Below are positions 2,858 through 56,948 of a stretch of DNA of 60,028 nucleotides, one piece after another (positions within the stretch are counted from its first letter, which is position 1; every line of letters starts with the position of its first letter). The position numbers and the translations under genes are program-made. Source of the stretch: Parcubacteria group bacterium (GTDB lineage: Bacteria; Patescibacteriota; Minisyncoccia; 2-02-FULL-40-12; IGHO2-01-FULL-4-A). The notes beneath the pieces were generated by a model. That model saw nothing but the letters and a program-made list of their open reading frames with translations. It had not been told where the DNA came from and made no database searches. The stretch is taken from contig JBDRCU010000038.1 of NCBI GenBank assembly GCA_043821485.1, positions 1-60,028 of the forward strand. The letters run 5' to 3'.

Positions 2858-4110
2858 GATTCATTTTGAACAAAATATCGATTGTAATTCTTCTGGTGCT
2901 TTTTGTGGCTATAGGTATGAATTTCGCTTTGGCTGCAAGCAAGGAAGATCGCATTCTTGATTTGAGGCAACAGATCGAAGAGCTTACTAGGCAAGCAGAA
3001 CAATTCAGAAAAAATGTTTTGGACAAACAGCAAGAATCAAATACTTTATCCCGTGAGATTTCAATAATTAATAATCAGATTTCAGCTCTCCAAGCAGAGA
3101 TAAACAGAACTTCCAATGAAATAGAAACAACTGAAATTGAGATAGTAGACCTTGAGGGTCAAATTTTTGATACAGGACAAACCATAGATACGCACAAAAG
3201 AACATTAAGCGAACTCATGGTTTCCATGTACGAACGTGATCAGATGGGGATGGTCGTAATGCTTCTTAGTAATGAACACCTGTCAGATTTTGCAGATGAA
3301 GCACAACAAATTGAAACGCTGAATGCGCAGTTATCAAAAATAGTTACTGATTTAAAAGAACAGAAGAATTTTCTTGAGGATAATAAGAATGAGCTTTCAG
3401 ATAAGAGGGGTAATCTACTCGTACTTAACGATCAGCAATTCAATCAACGAAACTCGCTTGGTTCTAGCCGTAACCAAAAAGATAATGTCCTGAGTGAGAC
3501 AAAAGGAGAAGAAAAGAAATATCAGGAATTACTGAATGAGGCTGAACAGAAGAAAGCCCAATTTTTTCAGGAGCTACAAGCGCTTGAAAGTGAAGCACGT
3601 GAAACAGGAACATTTATAGTCCATGTAACAGCCAGTAATGTACCTGCAAGAGGAACAGAGCTCTATCAGTGGCCATATGAAAAATTTGTTAATACACAGG
3701 GATACGGATATACAGCTTATGCAAATCGTGGAGCCTATGGAGGGGCCCCGCACAATGGAATAGATATTGTTAGTGGTTATGCTAGTCCAATCAGATCAAT
3801 AGGGGATGGTAATGTTTTGACTGCAGGTTTTAATAATGGATTTGGAAACTGGGTAGCAATTCAACATGACAATGGCATGGTCAGTCTCTATGCTCATATG
3901 AATTCTCCTGCACGTCTTGGGAATGGTACGGATATTAAAGCAGGGGATACAATAGGGTTTGAAGGTTCCACAGGGAACTCGACGGGGTCGCATCTTCATT
4001 TGAGTTTATATACCGATTTCTTTACATATATAAGGCAAAGTAATGGCCAGATATACTTTAATTATTTTGATGGTACGGTTAACCCATTTGACTATTTGGT
4101 AAAAAGATAG
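2854..4110 (+). CDS. Secreted coiled-coil protein with C-terminal M23 peptidase domain (murein hydrolase)
   Basis: Signal/TM N-terminus, long coiled coil, HNGID, YAHM, GSTGNSTGSHLH M23 motifs. Confidence 0.88.
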   Translation: MRFILNKISIVILLVLFVAIGMNFALAASKEDRILDLRQQIEELTRQAEQFRKNVLDKQQESNTLSREISIINNQISALQAEINRTSNEIETTEIEIVDLEGQIFDTGQTIDTHKRTLSELMVSMYERDQMGMVVMLLSNEHLSDFADEAQQIETLNAQLSKIVTDLKEQKNFLEDNKNELSDKRGNLLVLNDQQFNQRNSLGSSRNQKDNVLSETKGEEKKYQELLNEAEQKKAQFFQELQALESEARETGTFIVHVTASNVPARGTELYQWPYEKFVNTQGYGYTAYANRGAYGGAPHNGIDIVSGYASPIRSIGDGNVLTAGFNNGFGNWVAIQHDNGMVSLYAHMNSPARLGNGTDIKAGDTIGFEGSTGNSTGSHLHLSLYTDFFTYIRQSNGQIYFNYFDGTVNPFDYLVKR

Positions 4111-4116
4111 TATACT
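4088..4116 (+). promoter_or_regulatory. Consensus sigma70 promoter TTGACT-17-TATACT
   Basis: Exact spacing read from sequence; overlaps the M23 gene end and points to ORF 4241. Confidence 0.6.
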
Positions 4117-4240
4117 TTGAATACAAGAATGAGATAGGTGACAGATCCTTCCCGGGTGTGCCGAGCACAGTCCAGGGTCCAGGGAAGGGGATTTCCACTC
4201 AGCTCAGGACTTTTTTCCCTTCGGGGACGGAGGTAATGAG

Positions 4241-4429
4241 ATGAGGACTGAATTGACCTGGAGCGAGGCGGTCGGCCTTCTCTCCGGAGCTCTCGATGGC
4301 GAGAAGTACAGGAGGAAGGAGATTGAAAGAATCTCCATGAGGAAGGCAGCCCATTCTAGGGCGGTGGCGAGATTCGCTGTGAAACGTCATCGTCAGAACA
4401 AAAAGAGCGACGGAAAGAAAGGGGACTAG
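4241..4429 (+). CDS. Small basic hypothetical protein (62 aa)
   Basis: GGAGGT SD 9-10 nt before ATG, upstream promoter, downstream AAGCCCGC...GCGGGCTTTT stem (4479-4521). Confidence 0.6.
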   Translation: MRTELTWSEAVGLLSGALDGEKYRRKEIERISMRKAAHSRAVARFAVKRHRQNKKSDGKKGD

Positions 4430-4720
4430 ACCCCTTCAAACCGTTGCCAGCACCCATGGTAATATCACCATAGGCTAGAAGCCCGCAGTATCACTTCACG
4501 ATACACTTCACGCGGGCTTTTCAACTTTTAGAAACAAAAAAATAGATACCCATACCACGGAGCAGGGGAGTAGTGGCCTTTTTTATAAAATAGAATCTAT
4601 AATTTCATATAAAAATATTTCTATCCCTTCCTTGTGCCATCCAAGATATTTTATTGCATGTTACAAAATATGAAATGTCAAATGTTTCACGAAACGTAAC
4701 AACTGTGGATAACTTTATGC

Positions 4721-5149: not shown

Positions 5150-5387
5150 CATATATTTCAGAAAAGGTCACTTTTTGTATTACTCCTCTATTCCATAGTA
5201 TTAGTTATCTCAATTGAATTTTATTTATTAGTAATAAGGAGCATATCTTTTAAAAGTCATCTCGTTCTCTCCTCCCCCATAGGTAGCTTTTTTTATACGC
5301 TTGATTAATTCCGATTATTATGGTATATTAATATTATTAAATCGGGCCACTCCCCTGTCTCATTTAAATGGGGGTATGGAGGATCCG

Positions 5388-5555
5388 ATGGGAAAGAGGG
5401 AAAAGAAGGAAGAAGAGAAATTTGATGGACAGTTCGGGCTTTTTGAGACCGGGCTGAACATCAGCAAAAAGCCTCCACTTCCAGTAGAGCTGGAGATGGA
5501 ACAGATCCGAGCCAGAGTAGCTCGGAGAGAGGAGAAAAAAGAAGTACACGCCTAA
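5388..5555 (+). CDS. Small charged hypothetical protein (55 aa)
   Basis: Within ORF 5301..5555; GGAGG SD before ATG 5388; TTGATT(5301)-17-TATATT promoter; downstream hairpin. Confidence 0.55.
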   Translation: MGKREKKEEEKFDGQFGLFETGLNISKKPPLPVELEMEQIRARVARREEKKEVHA

Positions 5556-5704
5556 TCCGCCCCCAAGGACAACACCTCGTCCTACGGGGCGTTGTTCGTT
5601 TTCTGGGGTTCTGATGTTGAATGATTTTTCATTTTATAGTATATCTTTTTATAGGTTTCCAATTTGTTAACGTTAACGCCGAAGGACCAAGAGAGGTATT
5701 CGGA

Positions 5705-34204: not shown

Positions 34205-35962
34205 CTATCTCAAAACTTGTTCTCTGAGTCGAACTGATTTTGGAGTAATTTCTAAATATTCATCTGATGCCATATTATCAAGTCCGGTTTCAATGCTAAG
34301 CTTCATGGGCGGAGTTAATTTAATCGCATCGTCGCTGCCTGATGCACGCATATTGCTTAATTGCTTACCCTTGGTTGGATTAACTGTCATTTGCTCGCCC
34401 TTGGATGTATTGCCAATAACCATGCCTTTATAGACCTGCGTATTAGCTTCTATGTATAGCGTGCCTCTTGTCTGTAAATTATCGAGAGAGAACCCCAAGG
34501 CTTTACCCGCGGTTTGCGAAATCATAGAACCTACTTTTCGTCTTGCGATTTTGCCGGCATGCGGACGATATCCAATAAAATGACTGGCAAAAATTCCCTG
34601 TCCTTTGGTATCAATAATAAATTGATTTCGATATCCAAATAATCCACGGCTTGGACCTTCAAATATCAGCAATACGCGATTTCCATGCGTTTCCATCTTT
34701 GACATAGTTACGCCACGCTTACCAAGATTTTCGATAATCAGACCCTGGAACCCACTTGGCACATCAATAACCAGCTCTTCAAACGGCTCACTCTGAACTC
34801 CGTCTATTTCTTTCATGATTACATTAGGTTGTGACACTTGCAGTTCATATCCTTCTCGACGCATGTTTTCAATTAAAATCGCAATATGCAATTCCCCTCT
34901 GCCATAGACTGTAAATTGATCAGCATTACCAGTATCAAAGTCAATCTTCAATCCAACATTTACCTCGAGCTCTTTTTCTAATCGTTCTCGCAATTGACGA
35001 CTTGTAACAAATTTACCTTCTGTACCTGCAAATGGCGAATCATTTACCAGAAAGGTTAGTTTGATAGTCGGTGCATCAACTGCGATTGCCTCAAGCAATG
35101 ATGCATCTTGATCAACGCAAATAGTATCACCGATATATACATCGGGTAATCCTGCAATAATAGCAATGTCTCCTGCTCCGACAGTATCTACTTCTTTACG
35201 TGCAATCCCATTGAAAGTAAAAAGTTTTACAATTTTGTTTTTTTGAATTTCACCTGATTCTTTTTTTACATAAACATTATCTCCAGTGCTAACACTACCA
35301 TCATATACACGCACAACAGCAAGACGTCCCAAAAAATTATCATATGCTAAATTAAACGGCTGGGCTTTAAACGGCGCATCTTGATCACCAGATGCTACCG
35401 GCACTTTCTCGAGTATCATATCCAGCAGTGGCATAATATCTTCTGACTCATCTTCTAGCTCACGTTTTGCCATACCCTTTTTCCCAATAGCGTAAATCAT
35501 TGGAAACTCTAACTGTTCTTCGGTTGCTCCAAGTTCAACAAATAGATCAAAAACTTCATTGTGTACTTTTGCAGGATTAGCAGCGGGTTTATCAATTTTA
35601 TTAATTACTAATATAGGCTTGAGTCCTAATGACAATGACTTCTTGAGTACGAACCGAGTTTGAGGCATTGGACCTTCTTGTGCATCTACCACCAACAGAA
35701 CAGAATCAATTGATCTAAGCACGCGCTCAACTTCTGAACCGAAATCAGCATGTCCTGGGGTATCTACTATATTAATTTTTGTACCTTTGTATTCAATTGA
35801 AGCATTTTTTGAATAGATCGTAATTCCACGCTCCTTTTCAAGCGTATTACTATCCATACTAACAAACTCATTGCCAGCTCCTGTCTGGCGCATCAAAGCA
35901 TCAGTTATTGTTGTTTTCCCATGATCAACATGGGCAATAATAGCAATGTTTCTAATTTCCAT
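34205..35962 (-). CDS. typA: Translational GTPase TypA/BipA
   Basis: [42 protein letters not shown]. Confidence 0.96.
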
Positions 35963-53224: not shown

Positions 53225-54565
53225 ATGAGATCTACACTTCTTAAGACGTTACTCAACAGGAAAACGTTACTTATGGGGTCAGGAGTCCTGGCTTTCACAA
53301 CCATCCTAAGCTATATCTTAGGACTTTTTCGCGATCGCCTGCTTGCTACTACATTTGGAGCTACAAGAATTCTAGATACATACAATGCTTCTTTTGTATT
53401 GCCTGATTTGATTTTAAATATATTCGTTGCCGGCGCCTTGTCAGCTGCATTCATTCCGATCTTCAGTCAACTGCTTCAAAAAGAAGACTGTGAACAAATG
53501 TCAGAATTCATGAGTAGTGTTCTGACGAGTGCTTTAATCGTAGTCTTTGTTGTTGGTTCTTTAGTATTTATCTTTGCTCCCCAGCTTAGCAATTTTATTG
53601 TACCGGGTTTCAGTGATGCCGAACGTAGTCTCTATACATCTCTAACCAGAATACTGCTTCTCTCCCCTCTTCTTTTTGCAGTTAGTAATACTTTAGGAGG
53701 AATACTTGTTAGCAAAGAAAAATTTTTCTGGTTTGGCATTTCTGCTCCTTTGTATAATTTAGGAATTATCGGAGGTATAGCTTTCTTGAGTTCTCAATAT
53801 GGAATCTTTGGAGCTGCATATGGCGCTCTTGCCGGAGCATTATTGCATACATTAATACGTTTACCCGGAATAGTACGATCTGGCTTGAGATATAGACCTC
53901 GAATACGAGTCACAGACTATTACAAAAAATTCCTTCGCTTAATGACCCCGAAGATGATAGGTCACCCATTAGAACAAATTACATTCCTTGGATATACAAT
54001 AATTGCTTCTTCTCTCGGTGCTGGTTCAATTGCAATACTAACTTTTGCACGCAATTTTCAATATGCGCCTATTGCAATAATTGGAATAAATCTTGCTCTT
54101 ACAATATTTCCTACTTTATCGCGTGAAGCTGCTTCTGGCGACCGCAAAGCATTTCTTAGTAGTCTTTTCTTTACATTAAAAACAATAATTGTAACAACTG
54201 GCTTATCTGCTATTGCAATATATATTGCTAGATTCTGGCTTGTTGGCTTATTGCTTGGCGGTGGAGAGTTTGGAACTGATGCAGTTGCGCTAACTGCATC
54301 TGCACTCGGTATATTCACCCTTGCCATTCCAACTGAAAGCGTAAATCAACTTCTTGCAAGAGCATTTTATTCATTACAAAACAGTGTAACACCAGTTGTC
54401 ATTGGAATCATTGGATTGATTATTGCAATAGGCACAGGCTATATCTTCTCACGAACAATGGGAGTAAATGGTTTAATATTAGGATTCTTTATTGGCAGTG
54501 TTATAAAAGTATTACTGTTATCCATTCTTCTTAAAAAAGAAATTAGACAAAAGTTATCCTCTTAA
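53225..54565 (+). CDS. murJ: Lipid II flippase MurJ/MviN family
   Basis: SYILGLFRD, D.YNASF.LPD, GALSAAFIP.F, RAFYS.Q....P. Confidence 0.88.
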   Translation: MRSTLLKTLLNRKTLLMGSGVLAFTTILSYILGLFRDRLLATTFGATRILDTYNASFVLPDLILNIFVAGALSAAFIPIFSQLLQKEDCEQMSEFMSSVLTSALIVVFVVGSLVFIFAPQLSNFIVPGFSDAERSLYTSLTRILLLSPLLFAVSNTLGGILVSKEKFFWFGISAPLYNLGIIGGIAFLSSQYGIFGAAYGALAGALLHTLIRLPGIVRSGLRYRPRIRVTDYYKKFLRLMTPKMIGHPLEQITFLGYTIIASSLGAGSIAILTFARNFQYAPIAIIGINLALTIFPTLSREAASGDRKAFLSSLFFTLKTIIVTTGLSAIAIYIARFWLVGLLLGGGEFGTDAVALTASALGIFTLAIPTESVNQLLARAFYSLQNSVTPVVIGIIGLIIAIGTGYIFSRTMGVNGLILGFFIGSVIKVLLLSILLKKEIRQKLSS

Positions 54566-54573
54566 ACACAATC

Positions 54574-54601
54574 GAGCCAATTCCTAAAATGGAATTGGCT
54601 C
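54574..54601. terminator. Bidirectional terminator
   Basis: GAGCCAATTCC-TAAAAT-GGAATTGGCTC, perfect 11-bp stem. Confidence 0.75.
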
Positions 54602-54940
54602 TCTTGGTACTTGTAGAAGGGGGCCGACCGGAACAATCGGGGAACCCCAACGAGTGAGTGATCCTTTATGAGACCATACTCTCCAACTTCTGCGCCTCAT
54701 GTCCCGAAAGTGATCCAGGGCTGGTTGAAGGAAAGACTAAGTCCTCATCGTGGACTTACAGCCCCGTGAGAGCGCCCTATACTCTCACTAAAACCCGCTC
54801 CCGGCAGATCGACGTATAGTAACCCGGAGGTTGGTCCGAGCAACCCGTCGTCTGGTCGAAAGCGTCAAGAGGGTCCCGTCGTCCGTGTCGTGCGTCGCTA
54901 GGCTAATCCTTTTGAACGACGAGTCGGGCGAGGTGACCTG
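54574..54940 (-). ncRNA. Candidate ~370-nt structured non-coding RNA of unknown class
   Basis: TTGACG-17-TATCTT promoter (54974-54946), GC-rich, multiple stems, no SD-led ORF, closed by terminator. Confidence 0.5.
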
Positions 54941-54988
54941 TTAAAAAGATAACTCCTTATTTAAAAATCGTCAAGGGAGAAACTATAC

Positions 54989-55013
54989 AAAAATAAAAAA
55001 ACCCTTTCGGGAT
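54989..55013 (-). terminator. 25-bp terminator, copy 1
   Basis: Minus strand AATCCCGAAAGGG-TTTTTTATTTTT. Confidence 0.7.
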
Positions 55014-55063
55014 TGAATTTCGGGATTTAACGGGTCGGTCGAAGTCTCCTAACAACGACCGAC

Positions 55064-55282
55064 CTAATGTACGCCTCCTGCTAGTTCAGATAGGACGACT
55101 TCTACCCAAAGCACTACCAAGACGTTGATCAAGGTCTTGAGTGCTTCGTCTCTGTTCGCCTTACTGTAACCGGCTGAAAAAAGACGAGTGCCGTCCCGCC
55201 TGAGCAACGCGCCTGCTGGCAACTCGGAGTTTATTCGCGAAAGTACTTTTGGCTTCCGCCACCAGTATGACACAGTCTCCAT
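55064..55282 (-). CDS. Small hypothetical protein (72 aa)
   Basis: ORF with upstream TTGACA (55330) and downstream hairpin plus terminator. Confidence 0.5.
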   Translation of the reverse strand: METVSYWWRKPKVLSRINSELPAGALLRRDGTRLFSAGYSKANRDEALKTLINVLVVLWVEVVLSELAGGVH

Positions 55283-55340
55283 CCTTTCCGAGGGTCATTA
55301 ATAAATACCTTGTTATATTCCTCGTGTCAAATGTTATTTA

Positions 55341-55365
55341 AAAAATAAAAAACCCTTTCGGGATT
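55341..55365 (-). terminator. 25-bp terminator, copy 2 (identical to 54989-55013)
   Basis: Exact direct repeat AAAAATAAAAAACCCTTTCGGGATT. Confidence 0.7.
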
Positions 55366-55484
55366 CGTCTTGGGTGGGCGGGGTCGTTGACCCCGCCCAC
55401 CCAGCGCAGCAGCCGGGGCAGGAAACCACGACTGTAACTCGGCGCACGCCCTACGGCGTGCCTTCAGCAGGAGAGATGAGCTCT

Positions 55485-55652
55485 CTAGGGAGCTCTGTTG
55501 AGGTGCCCCCAGAAGTCGTCTCTGTCTTCTCGGGTGTCTGCGGAGTAGTTCTCTGCAAGCCACTTTTGGGGAAGCTTCTCTACTCCCTCTAGTGACAGGT
55601 CTCCGAATAAGACAATGACAACTCCTTCCTCGTTCTTTTTATCCTCGTTCAC
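55485..55652 (-). CDS. Small acidic hypothetical protein (55 aa)
   Basis: GTG 55652 after GGAGAGGAGG SD; TTGACG(55719)-17-TATTGT promoter. Confidence 0.55.
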   Translation of the reverse strand: MNEDKKNEEGVVIVLFGDLSLEGVEKLPQKWLAENYSADTREDRDDFWGHLNRAP

Positions 55653-55715
55653 GTTCGCATCCTCCTCTCCTGTGCTGATTGTGTAATTACACAATATGCC
55701 AATAATCCATATCCG

Positions 55716-56948
55716 TCAAGTCATTTTCAAATACCTCCTTTTCCTTAGCTTCTTTGGCATAAAATCTTGTTCTGCTTCTTTTTTATCCTTGTATCTCGGC
55801 GTATATTTATAGTCCTTCCCAAAGCCTAAATTCTTCATTAACTTTGTTGGCGCATTACGTAAATGTAATGGCACGGGTTCATTCGGCAATTCGCGTACAT
55901 CTTTCTTTACTTTTTCATAAGCTTGGTATAGAGCATTGCTTTTCTTTGATTTAGCCATATATACAACTGCTTGAGCAAGAGCTGTGTCGCATTCAGGCAT
56001 TCCGATAAAATGGCAGGCTTCATATGCTGATATTGCTTGCGGTAGTGCAAACGAATTAGCGATTCCGATATCTTCTGATGCAAATCTGACAAGACGCCGT
56101 GCTATGTATAAAGGGTCTTCACCGGCTTCAAGCATTCTTCCTAACCAATAGAGTGACGCATCTGTATTTCCCCCGCGCATACTCTTATGAAGTGCTGAAA
56201 TAATATTGTAATGCTCGTCCCCTGCCCGATCATAAAGAAGATGCGTACGTTGCAAAGATTCAGAAATCATCTTCTCATCAATTTTTAATTGTTTACCACG
56301 GCTACCCTTACTAGTATTCACTGCAAGTTCAAGAGCATTGAGTGCTACACGTGAATCCCCTGCAGACATACTCGCAAGATATTTAATTGTTTTAGCACTA
56401 ATATCTATTTTGCTATTTCCCAGTCCACGTTTCTTATCTGCCAATGCTCGTTTAATGATTGTTTCAATTTCTTTTGTATCAAGAAGGTTCAATACAAAAA
56501 CGCGAGATCGTGAAAGCAAAGCTGAATTAATTTCAAAGCTTGGATTTTCTGTTGTTGCTCCTATAAATGTAACAATGCCTTTTTCTACATGAGGCAATAG
56601 TCTATCTTGTTGTGCTTTATTAAAACGATGAATCTCATCAATAAAAATGATTGTCTTAGTACCCAAACGTAAATCAATAATTGCACGTTCAACTGTTCTT
56701 TTAATGTCTGCTACTCCGCCAGTTGCCCCGCTAAGCCGTACGAAGTTAGAATCAGTCGTATTGGCTATAATATGGGCAAGAGTAGTCTTGCCGGACCCCG
56801 GAGGACCCCAAAACACTATAGATGGGATAGACCCCCCCTCAATTGCACGACGAAGTATTTTGCCCCTGCTAATGATATGTTCCTGGCCGACAAATTCACC
56901 CAAATTAACGGGCCTCATCCTATCAGCAAGCGGTTGAGAATTATCCAT
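55716..56948 (-). CDS. rarA: Replication-associated recombination protein A (AAA+)
   Basis: PLADRMRP, WGPPGSGKTT, DEIHRFNKAQQD, ATTENPSF, ISALHKS.RG, ASEDIG. Confidence 0.96.
   Translation of the reverse strand: MDNSQPLADRMRPVNLGEFVGQEHIISRGKILRRAIEGGSIPSIVFWGPPGSGKTTLAHIIANTTDSNFVRLSGATGGVADIKRTVERAIIDLRLGTKTIIFIDEIHRFNKAQQDRLLPHVEKGIVTFIGATTENPSFEINSALLSRSRVFVLNLLDTKEIETIIKRALADKKRGLGNSKIDISAKTIKYLASMSAGDSRVALNALELAVNTSKGSRGKQLKIDEKMISESLQRTHLLYDRAGDEHYNIISALHKSMRGGNTDASLYWLGRMLEAGEDPLYIARRLVRFASEDIGIANSFALPQAISAYEACHFIGMPECDTALAQAVVYMAKSKKSNALYQAYEKVKKDVRELPNEPVPLHLRNAPTKLMKNLGFGKDYKYTPRYKDKKEAEQDFMPKKLRKRRYLKMT

Follow-up and report, generated by a model that had tools for sequence, protein, structure and literature searches.

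A probably transcribed, non-coding and GC-rich unit beside murJ in a Parcubacteria genome: a candidate ORF-less member of a set of moron-like cassettes

Examination of the region between rarA and murJ in an uncultured, Yanofskybacteria-like Parcubacteria/Patescibacteria bacterium with an AT-rich genome reveals a GC-rich island of 1.15 kb, the last module of which, hereafter unit C, is bounded by promoter and terminator signals and contains no credible ORF. We put at roughly 55% the probability that unit C is an ORF-less, lineage-specific and independently transcribed non-coding member of a group of GC-rich, moron-like cassettes. That it constitutes a discrete non-coding transcription unit, and is probably transcribed, follows from the combination of a non-random promoter, an RNA contig confined to the unit, the lack of any coding signal and the lack of a match to known RNA families. 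Its product could be either an orphan regulatory-type RNA or a functionless transcript. Beyond one 27-bp hairpin and two short ones, the structure of unit C appears to be no more than base composition predicts. The initial annotation had presented it as a novel large structured non-coding RNA, an assignment that does not hold up against a core fold with a z-score of only -1.37, stems and repeats at chance frequency, the lack of homologues and a locus that varies among relatives. These analyses would give the same picture for a genuine structured RNA restricted to one species, because MurJ identity to the nearest relative reaches only 57-59%.

The window, by which we mean the whole 60-kb stretch of DNA that was analysed, has a mean GC content of 38.6%. 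Within it the gap between rarA and murJ measures 1150 nt (54566-55715) and has a GC content of 51% that rises locally to 57-66%. On the minus strand this gap is made up of three consecutive promoter-to-terminator units, A, B and C. The principal features of the locus are:

53225-54565, plus strand: murJ, a gene for a MurJ-type flippase, forming one flank of the gap
54974 to 54574, minus strand: unit C, the third module, with a promoter, ~365-370 nt free of a credible ORF and an 11-bp hairpin
54989-55331, minus strand: unit B, with promoter TTGACA-17-TATTTA, a candidate ORF of 72 or 45 aa, a 9-bp GC stem and terminator AATCCCGAAAGGGTTTTTT
55340-55719, minus strand: unit A, the first module, with promoter TTGACG-17-TATTGT overlapping the rarA stop codon
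55652-55485, minus strand: the ORF of unit A, SD-led, 55 aa, orphan
54989-55030 (unit B) and 55341-55365 (unit A), minus strand: the terminator AATCCCGAAAGGGTTTTTTATTTTT common to both units
55716-56948, minus strand: rarA, a gene for a RarA/MgsA-type ATPase, forming the other flank

The ORF of unit A displays a coding pattern in its codon-position GC content (0.64/0.31/0.60), and a search of 5.8 billion proteins recovered no relative of its product except the product itself. The same unit contains a perfect 15-bp stem followed by the terminator AATCCCGAAAGGGTTTTTT, and folds with a z-score of -7.1. The terminator common to units A and B comprises an identical stretch of about 19-31 nt (two exact copies vs none expected), a 24-mer of which is absent from GTDB representative genomes, and the ORFs of units A and B found no match when used as probes in viral contigs. 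Elsewhere in the window are two further GC-rich mini-units, 4088-4530 and 5340-5610, which carry SD-led orphan ORFs of ~55-62 aa; the one starting at 4088 also shows the TTGAC promoter pattern. Accordingly, the cassette pattern, namely a GC-rich unit with an SD-led small ORF, is confirmed in the window for unit A, 4110-4530 and 5340-5610.

Other sequence elements were observed in and around units A and B. The half-site TTTCGGGATT is tandemly duplicated in the unit B terminator (55005-55030). A perfect 16-nt palindrome, TTGTGTAATTACACAA, lies at 55680-55695, where it overlaps the -10 box and the start predicted for unit A, and resembles the operator of a dimeric repressor. Unit A is flanked by an imperfect direct repeat of 17 nt (14/17) at 55294-55310 and 55720-55736, with one copy in the 3' end of rarA, which is about the level that chance provides in AT-rich sequence.

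Unit C had been described at the outset as a GC-rich, ORF-free stretch, and its GC content is indeed 54-57% against 38.6% for the window. Its body and predicted control signals are:

54969-54974, minus strand: -35 box TTGACG, 15-20 nt past the T-run of the unit B terminator
54946-54951, minus strand: -10 box TATCTT, at a 17-nt spacing
near 54939, minus strand: predicted transcription start
54610-54939, minus strand: unit body, GC-rich (57%) and non-coding
54574-54601: end hairpin GAGCCAATTCC-6-GGAATTGGCTC, with a perfect 11-bp stem

The promoter TTGACG-17-TATCTT reported by the initial annotation is in place on the minus strand, and the pattern to which it belongs is well above chance. The 60-kb window contains six copies of TTGAC-N18-TATNNT where 1.07 +/- 0.99 are expected, and none of 100 shuffles has as many. 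All six copies are found at plausible unit starts, and four of them head GC-rich mini-units. At the opposite end, the earlier claim of a perfect terminator stands as far as the stem is concerned, which is a perfect 11 bp and above chance, but not for the minus-strand U-tail, which is interrupted (GAUUGUGUUU). The hairpin is AT-richer than the unit body and lies just 9 nt past the murJ stop codon, so that it would also serve as the convergent terminator of murJ.

In light of these signals, the housekeeping RNA polymerase would start at TTGACG-17-TATCTT, just past the unit B terminator, and produce a non-coding RNA of ~330-365 nt. Transcription would then halt at the hairpin common with the convergent murJ, such that no antisense run into murJ would result. 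We infer the start, end and strand of the transcript on this basis. The cassettes themselves were probably acquired from a GC-richer source, as their composition suggests; no donor for the GC-rich island was found, and neither a mobility gene nor an att site was found for it.

Evidence bearing on transcription comes from a random-primed groundwater metatranscriptome of low depth, available as unstranded contigs, which is the only public run containing the unit C sequence and one of the three RNA runs of its study. Of the words sampled from unit C, 90-97% are present in it, vs 29% of those from the whole gap, and the run includes a 331-nt contig that is identical (100%) to 54619-54923 and confined to the predicted unit. 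Over the 60-kb window there are ~32 contigs, which cover ~11% of it, and no more than two of these are longer than the unit C contig. Half of the six contigs in the first 20 kb fall on other GC-rich mini-units, including those at 4181-4343 and 5376-5520, which lie on the mini-units 4088-4530 and 5340-5610, respectively. As a check on the transcription presumed in the initial annotation, a contig confined to unit C is favorable, in data of low depth and without strand information in which both DNA carry-over and GC bias are possible.

The match to the window breaks off ~8 nt short of the terminator stem, where the last 26 nt of this contig (CCCGTCACTTAACCAATTTGTAGAAG, plus strand; 54593-54619) diverge; the 3' end of unit C is therefore only a predicted one. 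This tail is not an adapter, has no second site in the window and is comparable to similar tips on other contigs of the run; it could represent a strain variant, a cDNA chimera or an assembly tip. A contig of depth 18.9 in the same run skips 121 nt at 35602-35724 and has long unmatched ends. Its source is probably a homologous gene in some more abundant organism, not the present genome.

The initial observation that no SD-led ORF lies between the promoter and the terminator is upheld by several lines of analysis. The longest stop-to-stop frame of unit C is 53 aa, and no frame has an SD-led start. The four longest frames have 0.52-0.60 GC at the second codon position, vs 0.30-0.31 for the neighbouring mini-ORFs, which is not coding-like, and a Pfam search of the unit returned no match. 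A phmmer search with a 50-aa minus-strand frame (54736-54587) against 1.84 billion proteins yielded two matches only, which were rejected as spurious given that both are internally repetitive proteins aligned over 7-8 weak stretches each.

These results also bear on the possibility that unit C is a decayed small-protein cassette, in which an SD-led mini-ORF was lost through frameshifts and point mutations. Such an origin would be in keeping with a promoter grammar and composition like those of the neighbouring coding units, with an SD-like AAGGAG in the promoter spacer that is not followed by a start codon, and with several overlapping open frames of 39-50 aa on the minus strand. However, the codon-position GC pattern of the neighbouring mini-ORFs is seen in no frame, and at 57% GC chance alone should produce open frames of ~50 aa. 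Stitched frames, sought with a degenerate pattern and tblastn in GTDB genomes, JGI metagenomes and the viral contigs of IMG/VR, found no relative, and the phmmer and Pfam results point the same way. Furthermore, unit C is still among the better-covered RNA contigs. On balance, we regard decay of a coding cassette as unlikely.

Comparison with related genomes shows that the junction at which the island lies is variable. The MurJ of the window is at most 57-59% identical to any of 5.8 billion proteins, with the named matches coming from Yanofskybacteria and Parcubacteria MAGs; it is not itself on record as a called gene, and as a single query against GTDB genomes it returned no locus. The rarA loci, for their part, are too conserved to single out close relatives. 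In three Yanofskybacteria-like loci (L081-L083) the gene order is SLT, murJ> <xseB <xseA <70-aa (p70) <133-aa (p133) <rarA, while elsewhere among the relatives murJ is followed immediately by xseBA, or the neighbours are quite different genes (DUF5671, PGI and YdjM, for example). In L084-L088 and most of L089-L098 there are other genes, or no gap, beside murJ. It is from these differences in gene content that the variability of the rarA-murJ junction is apparent. In the present genome, xseB-xseA (exonuclease VII) is missing from the rarA-murJ locus and from the whole 60-kb window, with the GC-rich island in its place. The island was also considered as a degraded form of xseA/xseB or of p70/p133, a proposal for which tblastn gave only noise.

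Searches for homologues of the island were uniformly negative. Units A, B and C compared by nhmmer with 168 related loci gave no match, none of 88 murJ loci of relatives contained a homologue of unit C, and blastn in distant mode found no match to unit C among phages and plasmids. These searches are low in power, as the databases contain no close relative of this organism (MurJ at most 57-59% identical). The covarying homologues that the structured RNA of the initial annotation would have were likewise not found across the 168 loci, phages, plasmids, GTDB, JGI metagenomes and IMG/VR, again with weak search power; with no homologues to align, unit C offers no alignment in which covariation could be sought. 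The initial annotation had itself named a lack of covarying homologues as refuting, and by that rule the strong form of its claim fails, subject to the low power of the search. One of the Yanofskybacteria-like loci does, however, contain a unit of comparable layout:

4339-4764 of L081, minus strand: an ORF-free unit of 426 nt between xseB and the 3' end of murJ, with a TTGACT promoter and a terminator

This unit resembles unit C in being convergent with the 3' end of murJ, in lying downstream of two small units and rarA, and in having a TTGAC promoter, ~370 nt free of credible ORFs, a terminator and local GC enrichment (up to 73%). It folds with a z-score of -2.0 and is confined to its own species. 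Unlike unit C, it is separated from the small units by xseBA, and the two have neither sequence similarity nor a common fold. A joint MAFFT alignment and alifold prediction did not exceed what shuffled sequence gives (identity z -1.5, energy z +1.6), and the unit was accordingly rejected as a homologue. It is at best a positional analogue of unit C, with no detectable homology. The small units upstream of the L081 unit end in a similar AATCCC...GGGCTTTTATTTTTT terminator.

The internal elements of unit C that had suggested a structured RNA, together with the single well-defined hairpin, are:

54788-54782 / 54772-54766, minus strand: stem GTGAGAG / CTCTCAC
54758-54752 / 54744-54738, minus strand: stem TAAGTCC / GGACTTA, nested in GGGGCTG / CAGCCCT
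54765-54759 / 54723-54717, minus strand: outer stem GGGGCTG / CAGCCCT
54738-54788, minus strand: the two short hairpins (GTGAGAG/CTCTCAC and TAAGTCC/GGACTTA), as many as chance predicts
54883-54875 and 54852-54844, minus strand: the repeat GACGACGGG
54923-54915, minus strand: CTCGTCGTT
54796-54864, minus strand: a 69-nt interrupted hairpin of 27 bp, the only well-defined internal structure

All the stems of the initial annotation, including ATGAG/CTCAT, are found in place, but their number is unexceptional: setting the terminator aside, there are two perfect 7-bp stems vs 1.14 expected (p=0.30). The repeat GACGACGGG is likewise present twice as described, but a repeated 9-mer has a probability of about 0.16, and the alternative pairings of its copies with CTCGTCGTT, from which alternative folds had been proposed, occur at chance frequency. 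The second repeat, GGATCAC, was also confirmed in two copies. Over its whole length unit C folds with a z-score of -3.85, which is mostly due to the terminator hairpin; once this is removed, the core (54610-54940) has minus- and plus-strand scores of -1.37 and -0.08, respectively. Among 110-nt windows only 54875-54766 stands out, with a z-score of -3.4 on the minus strand vs -1.2 on the plus strand, the others ranging between -1.8 and +1.4, and scores near 0 or above are obtained at either end of the unit (5' third and 3' 150 nt). The 69-nt hairpin has a predicted energy of -35 kcal/mol (z -3.38, equalled by 1 of 200 shuffles), and its MFE structure accounts for 64% of the ensemble. No tandem repeats and no direct-repeat family were seen inside unit C, and a guide-RNA or repeat array of the CRISPR or TIGR kind was rejected on the grounds that the unit has neither tandem nor interspaced repeats.

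These observations can be set against the proposal that unit C encodes a new functional large structured RNA of ~365 nt, with multiple domains and alternative pairings, acting as a ribozyme, a protein scaffold or a regulator. The proposal draws on the presence of a long GC-rich intergenic region in an AT-rich genome, which is the signature used in GC-IGR surveys (PMC11109978), on the unit's own promoter, terminator and RNA contig, on the one hairpin of z -3.4 with its strand asymmetry towards the minus strand, and on the similarly placed ORF-free promoter-to-terminator unit of L081 beside the 3' end of murJ. Against it stand the weak fold of the core and the unremarkable scores of the 5' third and 3' 150 nt, the chance frequency of the stems and repeats, and the lack of homologues in the searched collections and hence of covariation. 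Moreover, the L081 unit shares neither sequence nor a consensus fold with unit C, most relatives have no gap at the locus, and in GC-IGR surveys most such regions end as 'unnamed' or 'low-ranking' (PMC11109978). A functional RNA of this kind thus appears doubtful, and distinctly unlikely on the evidence as a whole.

The GC-IGR approach, developed in the Breaker laboratory, screens for long, GC-rich intergenic regions (PMC11109978, PMC8632094, PMC6429828), and in one survey of 4714 regions 607 were classed as low-ranking, 427 as unnamed and 55 as high-ranking (PMC11109978). Unit C resembles the 'unnamed' and 'low-ranking' regions in being long and GC-rich within an AT-rich genome, in containing no known RNA or ORF, and in having fewer than five representatives, as a consequence of which no consensus model can be built for it. 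It differs from them in possessing a non-random promoter and an RNA contig, signs that the pipeline does not demand. Judged by the standard of GC-IGR, CMfinder and R-scape studies, it is a long GC-rich ORF-less region that lacks several independent representatives, its only other occurrence being the identical RNA contig from one groundwater sample. In GC-IGR terms it would be filed as 'unnamed' or 'low-ranking'.

A further alternative holds that there is no independent RNA at all, with unit C being an inert spacer, foreign filler or the read-through tail of unit B, and the contig arising from DNA carry-over. The depth of the contig (3.9) is consistent with this, as it is not above that of murJ or rarA; so too are the unstranded nature of the contigs, the occurrence of the sequence in one of the three RNA runs of the study, and the potentially better recovery of GC-rich segments from an AT-rich genome. 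However, the promoter pattern is strongly non-random and lies exactly behind the upstream terminator, and the contig is confined to unit C. Coverage is also patchy, with 6, 10 and 16 contigs per successive 20 kb, unlike that expected of uniform DNA, and thus looks more like RNA than DNA carry-over. Furthermore, units A and B are uncovered at equal GC content, with nothing past the first 44 nt of the gap, which lie under a contig running out of rarA; GC bias alone therefore fails to explain the unit C contig. Given these points, we consider it improbable that no independent RNA is made.

A highly divergent housekeeping RNA missed by the Rfam models (RNase P RNA, long SRP RNA, a 6S or an Ms1-like RNA) is very improbable, in that only its size would suit RNase P (about 350-400 nt), whereas comparison of 1.5 kb with Rfam gave no match even at E<=10, the P4 strands universal to RNase P (GGAAAGUCC / ACAGAA...GGCUUA) are absent by inspection, ARAGORN detects no tmRNA at unit C, and the conservation in relatives that such an RNA should have is contradicted by matches in 0 of 168 loci. 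At the gathering score, Rfam 15 recognizes only four tRNAs in the whole window. At E<=10 on 54400-55900 it gives noise of 11-22 bits vs cut-offs of 38-219, with no hit inside 54610-54940; the families considered include RNase P (RF00010/RF00011), tmRNA (RF00023), SRP, 6S, OLE, GOLLD, ROOL, HEARO, raiA, introns and riboswitches. The initial remark that the hallmarks of RNase P, tmRNA and SRP RNAs are wanting is thereby borne out at both thresholds. A type I antitoxin or antisense role was rejected as well, as unit C forms predicted duplexes with the transcripts of unit A, unit B, murJ and rarA whose energies do not leave the range of shuffled sequence (z -2.1 to 0); perfect matches between units A, B and C reach only 8-9 nt.

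With these alternatives weighed, the reading of unit C as a transcribed, ORF-less cassette can be compared with known systems. Phage 'morons' are autonomous extra genes inserted between conserved genes, and single-gene GC-deviant islets have been reported in Patescibacteria/CPR genomes. Like both, unit C is a self-contained promoter-payload-terminator unit of deviant composition, situated between conserved genes at a variable junction, and its tandem arrangement with two such units is a further likeness. It departs from them in that its payload is no protein gene and, in the case of morons, in that its host is a bacterial chromosome and not a phage. Island-encoded orphan sRNA genes also occur in horizontally acquired regions of enterobacteria. 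By analogy, unit C might be viewed as giving a non-coding transcript that is confined to one species and has a promoter and an intrinsic terminator of its own, on putatively acquired DNA. At ~350 nt, however, it is longer than typical sRNAs and has no complementarity to neighbouring transcripts. We know of no chaperone or target for such sRNAs in this lineage.

As a cassette, unit C is much richer in GC than the core genes on either side and occupies a variable junction between conserved genes. It has its own TTGAC-type promoter and its own terminator, both of them predicted signals and the latter common with murJ. In contrast to the other cassettes, it has no SD-led small ORF, such that its membership among the cassettes is based on composition, promoter grammar and position, and it is at best an atypical, ORF-less member.

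A more far-reaching view, which we advance as a long shot, is that the GC-rich cassettes of Yanofskybacteria-like Parcubacteria deliver RNA genes too. On this view unit C would encode a functional RNA of ~350 nt, specific to the lineage and belonging to a fast-evolving, positionally equivalent set by the 3' end of murJ, with the L081 unit as a second example.

The main value of unit C at present is as a calibration case, in which an ORF-free GC-rich region bounded by promoter and terminator mimics a structured RNA by eye; once the terminator is set aside, nothing in its stems, repeats or overall fold energy appears to go beyond base composition, and the region also fits a pattern of orphan, putatively acquired mini-units. 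If the RNA is functional, it would be a rare lead to the regulatory or structural RNAs of the little-known uncultured CPR/Patescibacteria, and would show that small acquired cassettes are able to carry RNA cargo.
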